Of a stretch of DNA of 64,000 nucleotides, positions 3,222 to 58,294 are shown piece by piece. Source of the DNA: Pristiophorus japonicus (taxonomy: Eukaryota); assembly GCF_044704955.1 (NCBI RefSeq), contig NW_027252668.1, forward strand, positions 3,534,001 to 3,598,000, given 5' to 3'. How positions within the stretch are numbered: the stretch's first letter is position 1; each line of letters starts with the position of its first letter. A program made the translations under genes and the position numbers. The notes under the pieces are model-generated. The model was not told the DNA's origin. It saw nothing but the letters and a program-made list of their open reading frames with translations, and made no database searches.

Positions 3222-4490
3222 TACATAAGAATTAGGAACAGGAGTAGGCCATCTAGCCCCTTGAGCCTGCTCCGCCAATCAATAAGATCATGGCTGATCT
3301 GGCCATGGACTCAGCTCCACTTACACGCCCGCTCCCCGTAACCCTTAATTCCCTTATTGGTTAAAAATCTATCTATCTGTGACTTGAATACATTCAATGA
3401 GCTAGCCTCAACTGCTTCCTTGAGCAGAGATTTCCACAGATTCACAACCCTCTGGGAGAAGAAATTCCTTCTCAACTCGGTTTTAAATTGGCTCCCCCGT
3501 ATTTTGAGGCTGTGCCCCCAAGTTCTAGTCTCCCCGACCAGTGGAAACAACCTCTCCGCCTCTATCTTGTCTATCCCTTTCATTATTTTAAATGTTTCTA
3601 TAAGATCACCCCTCATCCTTCTGAACTCCAACGAGTAAAGACCCAGTCTACTCAATCTATCATCATAAAGTAACCACCTCATCTCCGGAATCAGCCTAGT
3701 GAATCGTCTCTGTACCCGCTCCAAAGCCAGTATATCCTTCCTTAAGTAAGGGGACCAAAACTGCACGCAGTACTCCAGGTGCGACCTCACCAATACCCTA
3801 TACAGTTGCAGCAGGACCTCCCTGCTTTTGTACTCCATCCCTCTCGCAATGAAGGCCAACATTCCATTCGCCTTCCTGATTACCTGCTGCACCTGCAAAC
3901 TAACTTTTTGGGAAAAGAGTTTCATGCACAAGCAACCCCAGGTCCCTCTGCATCTCAGCATGTTGTAATTTCTCCCCATTCAAATAATATTCCCTTTTAC
4001 TGTTTTTTTTCACCAAGGTGGATGACCTCACACTTTCCGACACTGTATTCCATCTGCCAAACCTTAGCCCATTCGCTTAACCTATCTAAATCTCTTTGCA
4101 GCCAATCTGTGTCCTCTCCACAACCCGCTTTCCAACTAATCTTTGTGTCATCTGCAAATTTTGTTACACAACACTCTGTCCCCTCTTCCAGGTCATCTAT
4201 GTATATTGTAAACAGTTGTGGTCCCAGCACCGATCCCTGTGGCACACCACTAACCACCGATTTCCAACCCGAAAAGGACCCATTTATCCCGACTCTCTGC
4301 TTTCTGTTCGCCAGACAATTCTCTATCCATGCTAATACGTTTCCTCTGACTCCGCGTACCTCTATCTTCTGCAGTAATCTTTTGTGTGGTACCTTATCAA
4401 ATGCCTTTTGGAAATCTAAATACACCACATCCATCGGTACACCTCTATCCACCATGCTCGTTACATCCTCAAAGAATTCCAGTAAATTAG
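3222..4490 (-). mobile_element. CR1 LINE 3' fragment with a 7-bp insertion at 3914-3920
   Basis: RT motifs GVPQGSVLGP and FADD in ORF 3997..5097; C-terminus in ORF 3311..3979; tail near 3222. Confidence 0.93.
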
Positions 4491-17087: not shown

Positions 17088-17480
17088 TTTGCACTTCAGT
17101 CCCCCGCTCCTGATCTTTGGGCCCCCTGTGCGGAGGGGAGCGGGCAGATCGGAAGGCCTCCTCGTAGGACTGCTCCTGGGCATGGCCAAGGTAGCCATTA
17201 ACCGGTCCAGGCCACGGGCGGTCGAGGGGGTGTTCAGCCTGACTGCCTGCCTCTCTTCCACGGTTATGTTCGTGCCAGGGTGTCCCTGGAGATGGAGCAC
17301 GCGGTGTTCACCGCTATGCTCGTGGCCTTCCGTGAGAGATGGGCGCCAGAGGGACTGGAGTGCATCATCACCCCCAGGAACCAAATTTTAATTTGATCCA
17401 TTTAATGCCAAAGTTAAATTTGTCTGTTTTAATGCCCCTTTAATAAGGGGGCACTTGATTTATTGTTTTACTAAAATAGT
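17088..17480 (+). mobile_element. Tx1-clade LINE 3' fragment
   Basis: LHFSPPLLIFG..RSEGLLVGLLLG matches the ORF2 C-terminus of the element at 44206-51365. Confidence 0.9.
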
Positions 17481-44028: not shown

Positions 44029-44449
44029 AACTAAACTAATCTCGAACTATTTCTGTCAGATATTAACTCCTGCGCGGTCCCAGCAAAAACTTCCACTCCC
44101 TCGTCCCTCCGATGTTTTTGCAGGATTGCTTTGTGAAGACAGCTGAATGGGGAGAAATTACAACATGCTGCGGTGCAGAGGGACCTGGGGATCCTTGTGC
44201 ATGAAACTTTTTTGGAGTTTACCTGAAAAACATAAACATTAATCTGTGCCCCCCGACCTGGATGACACACCAGACATTTACAAGGCCCTTTTTTCATTTT
44301 TTTTTTTTTTTGTGTTTTTCTTTTTTGGGGTTTTTTTTTTTGGGCACTAATATCACATTTTTTTTTTCCAGTGCCCCCTATAAAAGGGGAGGGGGACACT
44401 AAAAGCACCGGCAATTAAAACAAATTAAACTTTAAAACATAAAATCAAA

Positions 44450-47400
44450 TTAAAATTTGGTTGCCGGGCGTGATGATGCACTCCAGTCCCTCCGGTGCCC
44501 ACCTCTCGCGGAAGGCCACGAGCGTACCGGTGGACACCGCGTGCTCCATCTCCAAGGACACCCTGGACCGGATGTAAGAGCGGAAGAGAGGCAGGCAGTC
44601 AGGTTGAACGACCCCCTCGACCGCCCGCTGCCTGGACCGGCTGATGGCACCCTAGGCCGTGCCCAGGAGCAGTCCTACGAGGAAGCCCTCGGACCTACCC
44701 GCTCCCCTCCGCACAGGGTGCCCAAAGATCAGGAGAGTGGGACTGAAGTGCAGCCAGAATTTCAGGAGCAGCCCCTTTAAATAATAAAACAGGGGCTGCA
44801 ACCTCGTGCACTCAATAAAAACATGGAACACGGACTCCTCCAGACCGCAGAAATTGCAGGCGGCCTGGGAGTCCGTGAACCGGCTTAAAAATTTGTTGCA
44901 CGGCACTGCTCCGTGCACCACCCTCCAGGCCAAGTCCCCGATGAATAGTGGGAGGACTCCCGCATAGAGTGCCCTCTATCGGGGACCACTGCCTCCTCCG
45001 GACGGCAAGATGGTACGCCATGGCGTGTCCGGACGGCCGGCGAGGATGGAAAAGTTGAGAGTGTGCAGGAGCAGCCCATACAGGAAACCCCTCCGCGCGG
45101 AACTGAAAAGCACGGAGGAGATTTCCCCGAGGCGGCTCAAGTTGTGAGGCGCCGGCCCCCGAGGGAGGTTCCGGGGTTTGGCGCCGATGAGGAATTCCGT
45201 CCGGACGGGGGTCAGTTCGGACGGGATCTCCCCACGTGCTTGAGCCTCCTTGATGCACCTAACAGAGTCAGGGCCCAAAGCTGTTTTTAGCGACTCGATG
45301 GCTTTGGCCGCGCGGCGGACGTCGGCTGAATTTAGGCGCCACGCCAGCGTGCCTGGCGCCATCCAGCCCGCTCCTCCGCCATCGAGCAGGTCCCTGACCC
45401 TGGTCACCTCACCAGCCACAGCCCTCTCCTCCGACCGCCACATAAAACCTCGGTCGTGGAGGTACGGATTCCCGAGCAGCGGCTCCTGCAGGACAGCCGC
45501 CACTCCAGCCGGCGGAGAGCTGCGCTTGGTGGAGACTTTGTTCCAGACCCTGATGAGTTCCTTGTAAAAGACAGGCAGCTCCCGGAGGGCGGTCCTGACA
45601 CCCCCCAAGTTCATAAACAGGAGCTGCATGTCGTAATTGAGGTCGCGCTGCTGGCGGAAGAAATACGTCGCCAGAGCACACCACCTAGGAGGGGGCTCGA
45701 CGTAAAGGTATCTCTGCAGGGTCTGAAGACGGAAAGTCGCGAGCTGGGCGCTGACGCACACAACGACTGACCGCCCTCCTCAAGCGGGAGACTCAAGACC
45801 GCGGCAGAGACCCAGTGCTTCCTGTTGTTCCATAAGAAGTCCACCAGCTTCTTCTGTAACTTGGCGACAAACGCAGGGGGAGGGGTCAAAGTGACCAGCC
45901 GGTACCACAACATTGCGGCCACCAGCTGGTTTATGACTAGCGCTCGACCCCTGTAGGACAGCACTCGGAGCAGTCCTGTCCAGCGCCCTAGGCGAGCGAC
46001 GACCTTGGCCTCCAGCTCCTGCCAGTTCGCCGGCCAGGCTTCCTCGTCGGGGCTAAGGTAGACTCCCAGATAGAGGAGATGGGTCGTACTCCAGGCAAAA
46101 GGCCTGAGCTCCTCCGGCAGGGAGTCCACCCGCCACTGACCCACCAGGAGTCCGAAACATTTCTCCCAGTTGATCCTGGCGGAGGACGCGGCCGAGTAAA
46201 TCTCCTGGCACTCACACATCCTCCGCAGGTCAGCGGGATCCTCTACCGCGAGGAGCACGTCATCGGCATAAGCCGAGAGGACGACCTCCACGCCCGGCCC
46301 TTGCAGAGCCAGTCCCGTCAACCTCGTCCGCAGGAGGCGCAGGAAAGGCTCCACGCAGATGGCATATAATTGGCCGGACATGGCGCATCCCTGGCGCACC
46401 CCTCTCCTAAAGCGAAGGGGCGCCATCAAGGACCCGTTAACCTTAATCAGACACTCTGCGGCGGCGTACAAAAGTCGGATCCGGGCGACGAAATACGTCC
46501 CGAACCCGAAAGCGTGCAGAGTTCCGAGCAGATAGTCGTGATCCACCCTGTCGAACGCCTTCTCTTGGTCGAGAGATAGGAAGGCGACCGACAGACCAGC
46601 CTCCTGGGAATGATTGATGAGGTCCCGGACCAGATGGATGTTGTCGTGGATTGTCCGGCCCGGGACCATGTAGGACTGGTCGGGGTGGATCATGTGGTCC
46701 AGCACGGCACCGAGGCGAGCATACATCGCCCTGGCGAAGATCTTGTAGTCCGTGCTGAGGAGGGAGACCGGGCGCCAGTTCTTAAGGAGGTGGAGATTGC
46801 CCTTCTTAGGCAGCAGGACGATGACTGCCCTGCACCAAGAGAGGGGCATCTCCCCGGTCGCCAGACTTTCCCCCAGGACCCGCGCGTAGTCGCTCCCCAG
46901 GACGTCCCAGAATGCCCTGTGGAACTCCACGGTCAGCCCGTCCAGCCCCGGGGTTTTTCCCCTCGAGAGCCGGTCGAGGGCACCGGTCAGCTCCGCCAGG
47001 CTTAGCGGAGCTTCCAAATTTTCACCGCCCTCCGGGCTGACTTTCGGCAGGTCCTCCCACAAAACTCTATGCGCTTCCTCGCTGGACGGATCCGGAGAGA
47101 ACAGAGCCCCGTAATATTCACGGGCCCTGTTGTTGACGCCCTCCGGATCCAAGACGAGAGAGCCGTCGTCGGCCAGCAGCGTCAAGAGCTGCTTGCGGAC
47201 ACTCTGCCTTTTTTCCAGCGAGTAGAAGAATAGGGAGCCGCGGTCCAGATCCCACAGGAACCGGATCCGCGACCTCACGAACGCGCCTCGGGACCCGACG
47301 AGCTGCAGGTCCTTCAGCGTGGCCTTCTTCGCTTCGTACACCGTCCGCAGGGCCGGGTCCCCGACGACTTGACCGAGACGGGACTCCAGGTCGAGCACCT

Positions 47401-48343
47401 CTTTTTCTAGGCGCCTGACCCTGGCTGCCGGCCTCTTGGTCGACCCCCTCGCGTACTCTTGACAGAAGACGCAGACGTGAGCCTTGCCCACGTCCCACCA
47501 TAGCCTCAAGGAGGGGAAGCCCCCCTGCTTCCTTCTCCAGTTGGCCCAGAATCGACGGAACGAGTCCTGGAACCGCTCGTCCTCCAGCAGCCGGTTGTTA
47601 AAGTGCCAGTACGCGGACCCCATCCTTGCGCGGAGCGAAGCAAGCTCCGCCCACACCAGGTGGTGGTCCGAACACGGCACCGGCCGCATGGAGGCCGCCG
47701 GGACGCAGGAAACGTTCGCCCGAGACACGTAAAGGCAGTCGACTCTGGACCATCCTACTCCAGGCCTCACCCAAGTAAAGGCGCTGGAGTCGGGATGGAG
47801 ATTTCGCCAGACGTCCACCAAGTCGAAGGACCCGACCAGGTCCCTCAACTTCCCCATCGCCGTCATGCTCTGCGGGGCACCGGAGCGGTCCCTCGCCTCG
47901 AGGGTGCAGTTAAAATCCCCCCCGAGGACAATGCAGTCGCCGACGTCGACGGAGCCAAGAAGAGCGGACACCTCTTCGAAGAAGCGCATTTGCTGCGGGC
48001 CTGGCTGAGGGGCGTACACGTTCATGAGATGGAGCGGCACGTCCCCCAGGCGAACCGTTACGTGCAGCAAGCGGCCTGGCATGGGCTTCTCGACCCCCAA
48101 GATCTCCGGCTAAAAATGCAGGGCCAGCAAGATGGCCACCCCACTAGAAGTGGCGGTGAGGTGGCTCATGCGGACCTCTCCTTGCCATTCCAGGAGCCAC
48201 GTGGCTTCGTCTCCCGGAACGGTGTGGGTTTCTTGCATGAAGCACACCGCATATTTCCCCTCCAGCAGGAGCGAAAAATTGTTAAATCTACGGCGTGCCT
48301 CTTTGCCGCCGTTGATGTTGAGGCTGGCTATGGTTATCTCCAT
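44450..48343 (-). pseudogene. Tx1 ORF2 (APE endonuclease, RT, zinc ribbon), disrupted
   Basis: SLNING, QETH, GGDFN, SDH; WRPVSLL, KAFD, QGCAMS, YADD; CNFC..HVFIEC; stops at 48110 and 44976 plus frameshifts. Confidence 0.95.
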
Positions 48344-48368
48344 GACAAAAGCATAGTGTAACCTCTAC

Positions 48369-50470
48369 CTAACCTATTGTTGGGGGGGGGAGTGGAGTCG
48401 TTTGCTGACCTCCACTCCTTCAGCAGCCCAGCGAGGAACTTTTTGAGCCGGCGCAGCTCAAGGCCTTGCATCTTTGATAAGGGCCCGCCCGCGGCCATGG
48501 TTTTAGCGGCGGCGCGGACGGAAGCGATGAGCAGCCCCGGCTCGGATCATCTTTCCCGGACCAGATGGGCTCGGTTGCGGCGACCCTGGCTCTCGACAAA
48601 AAAGTCCCGGAGTACCTCTACGGGAATGAGGGGGGACTCAGCGGCGGGCACGAGGAGATCCACCGCCTCACTGGCGATGGACTCGAGATCTTCACCCGCG
48701 TCCTCCACCGAGTCCCCGTCCTCCTCCGGGAGGTCGCCGCTAGCAGCCGGCCCGTCGACCGCACGAGGTACGGCAAACGGCCCGGCCGCTCCATCCGGCC
48801 CTGGCTCTGCCCCGATCCCACCCCCAGGATCGTCGGCAGAGGAGTCCCCACTGGGCTCTTTTAGAATTGGTGCTGGGTCGGGGAGCGACAGCGGAAGGGG
48901 TTCCTCCTCCGCCCCAGGAACCGGGAAACACGGAGAGACCTGGTCAAAGAAATGAACCAGGTCCTCCAAGTCCCCCAGCCCCAAAGTAGGGGGCGAGGGT
49001 TGTTGTTTTTCCCCTTCTCCGCTGCCACCCCCCGGCCCAGCGTGTACAGATTCATTAAAATTGCTAATACTTTGTATTTCTGCCGGGTCGAGCAAGTCCC
49101 GGGGGAAGTTGGATATTGGCTGGGCGGGCTCGGGTTCGGCCTTTTCGGCCCCGCCCGCCTCAGTCCCCGGGACGCTCGACCCGGCGGCAACGCATTCCTC
49201 TGCTGGCCCCACGCCCCCCATGACAGGCAGATCTTTCACACCATCCCCGGGAGGCAGCGGCTGGGCAGCCTCGACTGTCCCACCCTCCCCGGGGACAGAT
49301 TCCTCGCGCCTATGGCACGGTTTGGGGGCGCCGGTGGGGGACGCGTGACACGCGGCGGGCACCGACTCCTCCGCGGAGGGATGTTGTTCCCCCCCCGCCT
49401 CATTGGAGCGGCGCCTCCTTTTGTTCCTGGGGGGGGCGCGGAGGCAGGGAGACCTCCATGTCTGCCGAAGCCTCCCGCTCCACCCACCCCTTTTTCTTGT
49501 CTTGCCCGCGCCCGAGCCCCTCTGTGATACTGATCAAGGGCTCGGGCACGGGCTCAGGGCACCCCGCGCTCGCCGGTGACGGGGTTGGGCCGAGCGCGGT
49601 AAATAGATTATCTGGTGCACTGAGGGGACCCGCCTCTAGATGTTTCGTCTTCTTCCGTGCCTTCTTTCCGGTCGGACGCTCTCCCTCCCCCCCACCGGAG
49701 GCCGTGAAAACAAAGGCCTCCGACGATGCCTGCGCACCTATGGCTCCCGGCACGCGGACGCAACTAGGGGGAGGGGTGGCGGCGGCGCCAGCCTTGGCCG
49801 CCTTTGGTGGTTTGGCGGCTTTGGAGGCGGGGCAGTTCTTGCGAACATGCCCCACCTCCCTACAGGCATGGCACCGCACGCCGTCCGATGTCCAGAAGAC
49901 ACGGTAGGCATTCCCCTCGTGCACCACATTAAAATTGCCCTCTGTTGTCTCCTCCCACGCCAGCCGGACAAAGAGCTGGCGGCGGAAGGAGAACACATGG
50001 CGCAGGCTGTTCTCCCTGAGGCCGAGCGGTATGGGGTTGATCCCCGACCTTACCTCCCCCAGTTGGTGTCGGTGAGGGAGGAGGAGCTCAGCGGGAACAA
50101 AGGGCGGGACATTCGATAGAATGACCCTCTGCGCGGTGGCCTCGAGAGGGTCCACCGGCAGGAACGCCCCGCCCACCGTGAGCCCCTTTTCAATGGCCAG
50201 GGACACCGCTCGCTCCGACCCCAGGAAGAACACGGCCTTCCCAGACATCTTGGAGGCTGCGACAATGGCCGAGGGGCCGACTACCCCAGCCATCGCCCGC
50301 ACGCACTCAATGCTCATTGTGGGGTGAGTGTAGCTCTTGACCCCGTTTTTCTTTGTAATGAGTCTGAAAGGTGGCAGGGCAGCAGGTGGCGCAGGAGGTG
50401 CCGTGGATGTGGACGCCGCCTGCGCATATGTCCTAGCTGGCCCTGCCACCGGCGTAGATGGGGTCGCCAT
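48369..50470 (-). pseudogene. Tx1 ORF1, frameshifted
   Basis: YAQAA motif, VILSNVPPF, zinc knuckle CHACREVGHVRKNC; continues in ORF 48547..49362; 3' end approximate. Confidence 0.9.
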
Positions 50471-51378
50471 CACGGGGTCCCTTTAAGGGCCACACCCACC
50501 CCAAAGTCACAGGCCTTAATGGTCTTAAGTGGCCTCGTTTGAATGTATGAACAGAGGGAGCTCTGAAAGAGGCACACCTCTCCCCTAGTTGGCAATTGGG
50601 GAGGGGCCTTGCTCCCTCTGCTCAGTTGTTTTAATTGTTTTTTATTAAAAAATTAGGAGGAAGGGCTCTCAGAGAGAGAGGGGAGAGACAGAGAGAGAGA
50701 GATAGAGTGAGGGGGTGTGGGAAAGAGGGAGGCTGCGAGGGCAGGTCTCCCCTCACAGCAATGGGTGGGTGCACTCCCCAGATGGCAAAACAAAACACAG
50801 TCTTTGGGGTGGGGGGAGAAGATGTCTTCACCTGGGGCAGCTGGAGCCACACAGGCACACACACCCAACGATGTTAACCAGGGTAATCAATAGTTATCAG
50901 CCTGGTAGCTCCAACTATCCCAGGCTAGGCAATGGGGGAGGGGAGCTTCAGTGGTGTGTGGGGCCTAGTTGTAAGCAAGAACCCCACACACACTTCCACA
51001 CACACACACCCCCCGCGATGTTCCGGCCCTTGAAAGGTCTTCCTTTCTCCCCCCACCAATAAAACAATGTCTTTCGGGGAATGCACCAACACCCACCTGC
51101 AGAATATTGCAGAATCTCCCTCCCTCCACACAGGTTGTTGCTCTTTCCACTCTCTCCAACTCTCTGTAGCAGTAATAAAGTTGGTAATTTTTCTGCGCTC
51201 CACCTCTCCCTCCGGATGTTGATTGGGTAGCAAGCCAGCCCTTCCCTCCTATTCCTGGGCTGTTCTCAGGGCTCACTCCAGACAGGAGCAAAGCAGGTAG
51301 CTCCTTCTCTCTCTGCAGCTTAGCTCCAACTGAATAGGCCACGCCTCCACTGCTCCACCATTGGCCCTTGTGCATGAG

Positions 51379-52020
51379 ACTCTTTTAGGAGTAAACAAAA
51401 AACATTAAACCGTGCCCCCCGATCTGGGGGAAACACCAACATTTACAATGCCCTTTTTTATTTAATTTTTATTTTTTGGGGTTTTTTTGGGCACAGAATT
51501 GAATTTTTATCCAAGTGCCCCCTACAAAAGGGGAGCGGGACACTAAAAGCACCGGCAATTAAAACAAATTAACTTAAAAACATAAAGTCAAATTAAAATT
51601 TGGTTGCCGGGCGTGATGATGCACACCAGACCCTCCGGTGCCCACCTCTCGCGGAAGGCCGCGAGCGTACCGGTGGACACCGCGTGCTCCATCTCCAAGG
51701 ACACCCTGGCGCGGATGTATGCGTGGAAGAGAGGCAGGCAGTCTGGCTGAACGACCCCCTCGACCGCCCGCTGCCTGGACCGGCTGATGGCCCCCTTGGC
51801 CGTGCCCAGGAGCAGTCCTACGAGGAGGCCCTCGGACCTACTCGTTCCCCTCTGCACAGGGTGCCCGAAGATCAGGAGTGTGGGACTGAAGTGCAGCCAG
51901 AATTTCAGGAGCAGCCCCTTTAAATAACAAAACAGGGGCTGCAACCTCATGCACTCAATAAAAACATGGAACACGGACTCTTCCAGACCGCAGCAATTGC
52001 AGGCGGCCTGGAAGCCCGTG
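51379..52020 (-). mobile_element. 5'-truncated second Tx1 copy, head-to-tail with the long copy
   Basis: ORF 51588..52133 closely matches the ORF2 C-terminus; 3' UTR is related but diverged. Confidence 0.95.
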
Positions 52021-52899
52021 GGTGATCCCAAAAAGTTAGTTTGCAGGTGCAGCAGGTAATCAGGAAGGCGAATGGAATGCTGGCCTTCATTGTGAGAGGG
52101 ATGGAGTACAAAAGCAGGGAGGTCCTGCTGCAACTGTATAGGGTATTGGTGAGGCCGTATCTGGAGTACTGCGTGCAGTTTTGGTGACCTTACTTCAGGA
52201 AAGATATACTAGCTTTGGAGAGAGTACAGAGACGATTCACTAGGCTGATTCTGGAGATGAGGGGGTTACCTTATGATGATAGATTGAGTAGACTGGGTCT
52301 TGACTCGTTGGAGTTCAGAAGGATGAGGGGTGATCTTATAGAAACATTTAAAATAATGAAAGGGATAGACAAGATAGAGGCGGAGAGGTTGTTTCCACTG
52401 GTTGGGGAGACTAGAACTAGGTGGCACAGCCTCAAAATACGGGGGAGCCAATTTAAAACCGAGTTGAGAAGGAATTTCTTCTCCCAGAGGGTTGTGAATC
52501 TGTGGAAATCTCTGCCCAAGGAAGCAGTTGAGACAAACTCATTGAATGTATTCAAATCACAGATAGATAGATTTTTAACCAATAAGGGAATTAAGGGTTA
52601 TGGGGAGCGGGCGGGTAAGTGGAGCTCAGTCCACGGCCAGATCAGCCATGATCTTTTTGAATGGCGGAGCAGGCTCGAGGGGCTAGATGGCCCACTCATG
52701 TTCCTAATTCTTATGTTCTTATATTATGTAAACACCCTGCACGGAATGATCCCAAATTGAGCATTTCCAGGGGACAAGGCTCCCAGCTTTAATCATTCTC
52801 TGTCCTTTCCCCCCAGGCCCAGTTCCTTTGTTCAGATTCTGATAAAAGTAAATTGGGAAAAGTGCATTTTGATTTTTATCGGCTCAATTATTGCAGAGA

Positions 52900-56457: not shown

Positions 56458-57028
56458 GTCAGAGCCGCCAAGCCTGGCACCAGCAAACCCTGGGGGCAGT
56501 GCCACCCGCACACCACTTGCATTTATGCAGCAGGCCCAGCAATTCCCAGTCGCTCTATCAGGGAGGGCGCTGGATGTGGAAGTCTCTCCCTGACCTCCTG
56601 TGTGGGTCTGTTCGTTGCATCAGTTTGAGCTGGAGTGGGGAGGAGGGAGAAGCTGCTGGGTTTCACCCCCAGTACTTCTGGGCCCAGTGGGACCAACAAT
56701 TTCCCATGTGGGACTGTCACGGGAGGTGGGTTCCCTTTCCTGAAGGACAGTCGTGACCCAGATGTGTTTTTATGACAATCCGGCAGCTTTCATTGTCACT
56801 TTTTTCTAGTGCTGGCCCCACAAATGACCAGATTCATCAAGCTCAATTTCACAAACTGCCTTTGTGTTTTTGTGGGTTCTCTCTCACACTCCCTTTTACC
56901 TGTTTGAAATTCACTTTATAGGGTATTAAAAGGGGAGGATTTGTAGACTGGAAGCTCAAACCAAACATCACTTCAAGATCTGACAGTCACTCGATACATC
57001 GGGACCGGAATATCATCAGCTTTTGACC

Positions 57029-58294
57029 ATGGAAGCAGAAGGCACCGTTCACAGTGGGGAGAAACGGTACACGTGCTCTGTGTGTGGACAAGGCTTCAGC
57101 CAATCATCCAACCTGGAGAGACACAAGCACAGTCACATTGGGGAGAAACCATGTAAATGTGAGGACTGTGGGAAACGATTCAACTACCCGTCCCAGCTGA
57201 AAATGCACCAGCCATTTACCTGCTCTGACTGTGGGAAGGGATTCACTGCATCATCCCACCTGCTGACACACCAAGTTCCCACTGGGGAGAGGCTGTTCAT
57301 CTGCACGGAGTGTGGGAAGGGATTCACTGTATCATCCAGCCTGCTGACACACCAGCGAGTTAACACTCGGGAGAGTCCGTTCACCTGCTCCGACTGTGGG
57401 AAGGGATTCACTGCATCATCCCACCTGCTGACACACCAGCAAGTTCCCACTGGGGAGAGGCCGTTCACCTGCTCCGACTGTGGGAAAGGATTCACTCAGT
57501 TATCCGCCCTACTGAGACACCAGCGAGTTCACACTGGGGAGAGACCTTTTAAATGTTCTGACTGTGAGAAGAGTTTTAAAAGCAAACAGCAACTCCTGAC
57601 ACACCAGCGAGTTCACACTGGGGAGAGGCCGTTCACCTGCTCCGAGTGTGGGAAGAGATTCACTCAGTCATCCAGCCTGCTGACACACCAGCAAGTTCAC
57701 ACCGGGGAGAGGCCGTTCACCTGCGTGGAGTGTGGGAAGGGTTTCACTGTATCATCCAGCCTGCTGATACACCAGCAAGTTCACACTGGGGAAAGGCCGT
57801 TCTCCTGCTCCGACTGTGGGAAGGGATTCACTCAGTTATTCGCCCTGCTGAGACACCAGCGAGTTCACACTGAGGAGAGACCTTTTAAATGTTCTAACTG
57901 TGAGAAGAGTTTTAAAAGCAAACAGCAACTCCTGACACACCAGCGAGTTCACACTGGGGAGAGGCCTTTTAAATGTTCTGACTGTGAGAAGAGTTTTAAA
58001 AGCAAACAGCACCTGCTGATACACCAGCGACTTCACACTGGGGAGAGGCCGTTCACCTGCTCAGAGTGTGGGAAGGGATTCACTCTGTCATACCACCTGC
58101 TGAGACACCAGCGAATTCACACAGGGGAGAGGCCGTTCAGCTGCTCTGAATGTGGGATGGGATTCACTCGGTCAGCCCACCTGCTGAGACACCAGCGAAT
58201 TCACACTGGGGAGAGGCCGTTCACCTGCTCAGAGTGTGGGAAGGGATTCATTCGATCATCCAACCTGCTGAGCCACCAGCGAGTTCACAAGTGA
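57029..58294 (+). CDS. Tandem C2H2 zinc-finger protein, 15 finger units, no KRAB visible
   Basis: Open ORF from ATG 57029 with TGERPF linkers; candidate splice acceptor at 56921. Confidence 0.93.

Follow-up and report, generated by a model that had tools for sequence, protein, structure and literature searches.

A 64,000-nt stretch of the genome of the shark Pristiophorus japonicus (contig NW_027252668.1, positions 3,534,001 to 3,598,000, forward strand; hereafter the window) contains a CR1 long interspersed nuclear element (LINE) that is split by two head-to-tail copies of a Tx1-clade LINE, both on the minus strand. This arrangement had been predicted from the sequence alone and is confirmed by the colinearity of the two CR1 halves (end at 44205, restart at 52026) with another CR1 of the window (3223-3982; 94-95% identity). 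The 5′ part of the host CR1 (44140..44205, plus strand) carries codons of its second open reading frame (ORF2), ...LQHAAVQRDLGILVHE, with the frame read directly and 96.8% identity to the CR1 ORF2 of locus L075; the 3′ part (52026..52720, plus strand) resumes with SQKVSLQVQQ... and continues up to the tail repeats. The split point lies between the codons for ...RDLGILVHE and SQKVSLQ..., about 30 residues past the Pfam reverse transcriptase (RT) domain and about 690 nt before the CR1 3′ end. The reading frame is thus interrupted, as originally proposed, but this host was already 5′-truncated, starting about 65 nt ahead of the Tx1 site, so that no working ORF was broken at this locus.

The longer Tx1 (44206..51364, minus strand) is a full-length element of 7,159 nt without a poly(A) tail. 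The predicted 12-bp target-site duplication, CCTTGTGCATGA, is found at its 3′ end (44193..44204, plus strand) and again between the two Tx1 elements (51366..51377, plus strand), an exact match shorter than the usual duplication of the family, about 14 bp. Its 3′ untranslated region (UTR; 44206..44447, minus strand) contains an A-rich tract and the AAAA(A)GAGT-type terminus of the family. ORF2 (44448..48343, minus strand), located by tblastn with the open-frame natural copy of locus L089, encodes an apurinic/apyrimidinic endonuclease (APE), an RT and a zf-RVT domain, and is interrupted by three stops (near residues 78, 1123 and 1231) as well as by a frameshift around residues 857-872. ORF1 (48346..50470, minus strand), with a CCHC zinc knuckle, is likewise interrupted, by a frameshift around residues 319-352 and a stop close to residue 637. 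The shorter copy (51379..52020, minus strand; 642 nt) is 5′-truncated and 89% identical to the longer one over 644 nt, and the two 3′ UTRs differ, as had been noticed. A different, very abundant repeat, presumably L2-like, has the first 13 nt of the long Tx1 (51352-51364) on its opposite strand; this match is possibly due to chance. A pattern for Tx1 5′ ends was too loose, most of its matches coming from another repeat, and serves as a lead only.

Identity of the Tx1 family and of its host

Five sampled copies of the family have ORF2 frames free of stops (1,291-1,315 codons). The ORF2 product of L089 contains the domains PF03372 (residues 6-227) and PF00078 (512-761), together with a weak zf-RVT match (PF13966, 1131-1180) below the curated cut-off, and the ORF1 product of L045 contains a CCHC knuckle (PF00098, 204-219) just above the cut-off. 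An ORF1 with a CCHC zinc knuckle is a feature of the Tx1 clade. The open-frame ORF2 shares 49% identity over 1,293 residues with Tx1L of Xenopus; the RT region is 60% identical to that of Tx1L versus 24-25% to that of CR1, the ORF2 matches reach E=0 for Tx1L versus 1e-80 for human L1 ORF2p, and the endonuclease motifs also align with those of Tx1L. In an RT tree, which held no L1 row, the family pairs with a stingray sequence (90/97) beside a group of Tx1L, turtle and sturgeon sequences, the order of the pair relative to this group being left unsettled by the tree. Together with the APE, RT and zinc-binding layout, this comparison of RT and endonuclease upholds the Tx1 assignment, and the family also shows the sequence-specific insertion into a repeat that is known from the clade. 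The ORF2 of the host CR1 is about 44-52% identical to most of its bird and turtle LINE hits, presumably CR1 elements, and 61-68% identical to proteins of rays and bamboo shark; no hit bears the name CR1. The closest named relatives of both the Tx1 family and its host are from rays and bamboo shark. At least one quarter of the sampled Tx1 ORF2 words are present in sequencing runs labelled as three other organisms (X5, X12, X13); no RNA run was among the holders listed, which has no bearing on expression, and no piece bridging the Tx1/CR1 junction was found among the contigs listed from four sequencing runs of other organisms.

Tx1 insertions at the CR1 site across the genome

We scanned the 5.92-Gb assembly (1.18 × 10^10 strand positions) with a pattern of the 16-17-nt Tx1 3′ tail without flank, which takes in only some tail variants. 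The pattern matched 2,112 + 396 = 2,508 places, versus none for the reversed control. The exact CR1 12-mer follows the tail directly, in antisense, in 1,799 of these places (72%), where 0.026 are expected. As this 12-mer occurs 124,358 times in the genome, the enrichment behind Tx1 3′ ends is about 68,000-fold over site abundance. The original prediction had named CR1 as the specific landing site of this family and diverse 3′ flanks without CR1 excess as the opposite outcome; the flanks are not diverse and the excess is large. Classification by eye of the first 100 listed places of each tail set led to similar proportions: in the set of 2,112, 76 ends run into CR1, 13 are followed by the target and then by a further Tx1, and 11 lead elsewhere (two of the latter proved on-target once the loci were fetched, in addition to the 89), and in the set of 396, 77 are on target or in tandem and 23 off target. 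The weighted estimate, with mismatches allowed, is that about 87% of Tx1 3′ ends hit the target; a Tx1 in sense orientation at the CR1 site is absent from the 200 listed ends.

Seen from the side of the host, there are 49,088 exact 21-mer target sites, and at least 5,351 of them (at least 11%) are filled, a lower bound since one trailing base is restricted in the pattern; among the first 100 listed 21-mer sites, 15 are filled. Several different tails occur among the filled sites, indicating that several Tx1 subfamilies use one CR1 site. Site- and orientation-specific insertion into CR1 is therefore strongly supported.

We fetched 60 loci, namely the first 40 of the main tail listing and 20 picked as off-target or unlisted there. 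In segments of at least 250 nt, and with locus edges and internal deletions dropped, no fewer than 34 different 5′ truncation points are found, CR1 sequence continuing upstream of them. Duplications could be scored at 39 of the 50 loci with an on-target junction: 27 measure 13-18 bp, with a mode of 14, and three of the remaining outer junctions have an exact match of 5-8 bp. The insertions are thus independent events that share a site, an orientation and a duplication of about 14 bp, and the duplicated site is used again in tandem.

The same CR1 position also collects much smaller products. A third hit had been predicted in another CR1 of the window (3223-4480, minus strand), and is indeed present: seven extra bases at 3914..3920 (plus strand), again at this CR1 position, equal the final 7 nt of the Tx1 tail. 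They belong to a set of 365 insertions of many lengths (4-13 nt) at the CR1 site; among 100 listed, four have the exact 7-nt form of the window, and the start of the reverse-complemented tail matches the opening three bases in 93 and the opening two in 99. At 22 of 100 listed filled sites, the insertion is tail-only but has a longer duplication. Given such numbers of tail-derived insertions, the third hit is best described as a common abortive product. Pieces of small RNAs are found at the site as well, joined to a Tx1 tail or to a truncated Tx1: a tRNA-Asp followed by the Tx1 tail (L034:8485-8556), a 5S rRNA with a SINE-like (short interspersed nuclear element) head before it and the Tx1 tail after it (L116:859-978), and two weak tRNA-like pieces (L032:5677-5747 and L064:8218-8282; E ~0.2). 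The possibility that off-target copies had transduced CR1 sequence at their 5′ ends was dropped after closer reading of two loci, L034 being an on-target array with a tRNA insert and L074 an on-target copy followed by a CR1 deletion.

A related fragment of the window (17088-17480; Tx1-like 3′ part at 17090..17470, plus strand) had been put forward as a caveat. It does lie outside CR1, and matches ORF2 at 86% with a 3′ UTR of its own. Its 40 best hits are all on the contig of the window, and the 24 of them that were fetched all share its flanks (94-99%); this contig carries at least 40 copies of one duplicated unit with 92-99% identity (window 17090-17470, L091-L115). The fragment is thus one old insertion copied locally and, given its different 3′ UTR and this local duplication, it is no counter-example to CR1 targeting. 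Elsewhere, the window contains an open frame with about 15 C2H2 zinc fingers (56984-58294, plus strand) and another with a core histone match (PF00125; 38200-38703, minus strand).

Target recognition and 5′-end joining

Since the family is found thousands of times in antisense at a single base of CR1 ORF2, we consider it likely that its own APE endonuclease recognises and nicks this site for target-primed reverse transcription. That specificity resides in the endonuclease is inferred by analogy: the purified Tx1L endonuclease nicks almost solely its own target (PMC1950540), which favours targeting set by the enzyme, and the target choice of Tx1 elements has been ascribed to the endonuclease (PMC4494074). 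The CR1 sense strand would be nicked first, after ...GTGCATGA(A), and its 3′ end, now free, would prime copying that starts at the tail of the Tx1 RNA. Pairing between the target and one or two bases of this tail is likely, since the first junction T is element-derived at 6 of the 18 off-target insertions for which a duplication was traced. A second nick about 14 nt away would produce the duplication, which would rebuild the site at both ends and allow later copies to stack head to tail. Copying would often halt within 4-13 nt, or jump to another RNA, giving tail-only insertions and tRNA or 5S chimeras.

The CR1 site is a good harbour: it is a conserved ORF2 motif with more than 100,000 occurrences, and its position, about 690 nt from the CR1 3′ end, lets it survive 5′ truncation. 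Judging from CR1 biology, most host CR1s are probably dead copies, and the site looks more like a safe harbour than like a brake on CR1.

Several observations weigh against recognition of the CR1 sequence by the endonuclease as a complete account. About 13% of Tx1 ends are off target, nine of the 39 scored junctions show no duplication (two of them via a mis-picked motif), and some of the copies counted genome-wide arose by passive duplication (L005, L016 and, probably, others close to the beginning of the C1 contig). In 17 of the 18 traced off-target insertions the duplication is 12-17 bp long and a T-C-A core is kept, but only about three bases are common to these sites and the CR1 site, which is little for a protein required to read at least 12. 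Moreover, about 2% of the ends (7 of 200 listed; L071, L117-L122) lie at a second recurrent target that has only TTCA and the spacing in common with the CR1 site. In six of these loci the same element begins about 170 bp ahead of the site, and the flanks outside it are unrelated; the element contains a Myb/SANT ORF (PF13873 at E=1e-4) and is probably a Harbinger DNA transposon.

The arrays raise a further difficulty. At L072:6560-9501, a stack of short Tx1 copies, at least 12 in number and with tails of several kinds, lies behind a non-CR1 duplication of 15-16 bp, one unit and one micro-insertion carrying the CR1 site instead, so that plain recognition of the CR1 sequence offers no explanation there. 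Neighbouring truncated copies have an identical 5′ end in 8 of 9 pairs, or 17 of 21 when L072 is included. Same-truncation neighbours at L046 and L068 differ in their tails and at 12-25 polymorphic sites, and these differences rule out recent tandem duplication as their source; such duplication may lie behind the shared truncation in L047, L069 and L052/L053, the last pair having 11 rare variants in common. Old duplication followed by gene conversion may also have produced shared truncations. The simplest reading is that the new cDNA anneals to a neighbouring copy and borrows its junction.

These data bear on an alternative in which insertion is mainly guided by RNA or cDNA: in the absence of poly(A), transcripts would run on past the element into duplicated target sequence, and their ends would anneal either to a site nicked with little precision or to a copy already in place, and so set both the starting and the stopping point of copying. 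T is the first base of all 34 listed non-target ends, 25 of which open with TTC as the CR1 site does, and this alternative would also accommodate the six non-target-derived T residues, the L072 stack, the shared truncation points and a deletion junction common to 189 copies (see below); in R2, uniform 5′ junctions are set by retained target RNA (PMC3774820). However, at most one junction base is unexplained by the site itself in the 18 traced off-target insertions, none of which has a longer piece of CR1 at the junction, the second recurrent target has nothing but TTCA and the spacing in common with the CR1 site, and the closest named relative, Tx1L, has a specific endonuclease (PMC1950540). 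We therefore regard guidance mainly by RNA or cDNA as unlikely.

Alongside recognition of the site by the endonuclease, the 5′ end is likely attached by annealing, be it to short target homology or to a neighbouring copy, which would account for both the shared truncation points and the inherited deletion junction. We tentatively suggest, as a possibility that falls somewhat short of even odds, that the 5′ end is finished by annealing to any homologous DNA beside the nick, including a resident copy, in which case a copy of different source would inherit the exact truncation point of its neighbour, and a resident copy would on its own suffice as a target, also at places other than CR1. Thousands of reverse-transcription events, arrested or template-switched, would then be naturally recorded at the CR1 site, and the family would be a sequence-specific parasite filling more than one tenth of the intact sites of its host LINE.

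Passive copying, in which one or a few Tx1-in-CR1 insertions were multiplied by CR1 retrotransposition or segmental duplication, is very improbable as the main cause. It does occur around the window array, of which 3.2 kb at the 3′ end are duplicated at two more places on the same contig (L005, L016; 97.5-98.3%). In the first 4 Mb of C1, several filled sites have a rare tail or CR1 variants in common, suggesting segmental duplication near the start of this contig. In addition, eight sampled full-length copies share one 5′ junction, with about 18 bp of target deleted, and form a clade on their first 900 nt (support 100/100); this junction is present in 189 copies genome-wide. The CR1 flanks of this clade tell otherwise: they have no variants in common and are nearly as divergent as those of other hosts, both upstream (4.3% versus 4.6-5.0%) and downstream (4.5% versus 4.5-4.6%), so that the shared-junction copies were not carried inside one CR1. 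A G/A variant at the full-length 5′ junction did not follow the tree (92 of 500 shuffles as low). With the 34 or more truncation points and their fresh duplications, the hosts spanning more than one CR1 subfamily and the many lengths of the micro-insertions, the independent junctions and flanks refute passive copying as the main source; passive duplication is real but minor. Finally, broad insertion followed by removal of copies outside CR1 through selection or deletion, although in keeping with the 13% of off-target ends, is hardly credible and refuted by single-base precision, as differential survival might enrich for CR1 in general, yet could not single out one base in one orientation at about 68,000-fold.

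Comparison with known systems

Thousands of events at one base mean that outcomes can be counted without flank noise, among them duplication length, tail-only insertions, template jumps to tRNA or 5S and copied truncation points. Such counts bear on the joining of LINE 5′ ends, a step described as still poorly understood (PMC6895275), and these mechanistic side findings are testable. The chimeras with tRNA and 5S resemble starting material from which new SINEs could form, and the copies with an open ORF2 provide a vertebrate APE endonuclease with a new target for the study of specificity change.

The works-like comparison closest for the 5′ end is R2, in which 5′ junctions are uniform and inherited because the first DNA strand anneals to the target (PMC3774820). 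The deletion junction of the 189 copies behaves alike, although R2 differs in its use of a restriction-like endonuclease, ribosomal DNA and a ribozyme.

Among Tx1 elements, the Xenopus laevis element Tx1L (YTX2_XENLA) has as its target Tx1D, a DNA transposon of the piggyBac type, and the shark family resembles Tx1L in having an APE-RT layout and a fixed site within another transposon (PMC4494074, PMC6719617). It differs from Tx1L in that its target is the coding sequence of a LINE rather than a DNA transposon, and in the shorter and different hairpin loop of its endonuclease, a loop thought to read DNA (PMC1950540). In crocodilians, Tx1-Mar targets Mariner-N4_AMi, Tx1-8_Crp and Tx1-4_AMi target retrotransposons with long terminal repeats (LTRs), and Tx1-9_AMi the 5′ region of Harbinger; Tx1-Mar has also been proposed to mobilise the small-RNA-headed SINEU to its own target (PMC4494074). 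Compared by published description, the shark family shares with them the preference for another transposon. The tRNA and 5S copies at the CR1 site recall Tx1-Mar and SINEU, and the minor target about 170 bp inside the element with the Myb/SANT ORF recalls Tx1-9_AMi; unlike the shark family, none of the crocodilian families has a LINE among the targets given in the available part of PMC4494074.

Published targets of Tx1 elements comprise U2 snRNA genes, microsatellites, piggyBac, Mariner, Harbinger and LTR elements (PMC4494074, PMC4640811, PMC6719617). We found no CR1- or LINE-specific Tx1 in the published literature as far as it was available, nor a case in the accessible parts of PMC7265360, PMC13269885 and PMC3747384; Repbase lay outside this search and may hold such an entry. 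For a clade already known, the CR1 site is a target of a new class: with genome-wide numbers, a LINE coding motif joins the small-RNA genes, microsatellites, DNA transposons and LTR elements into which Tx1 elements insert.

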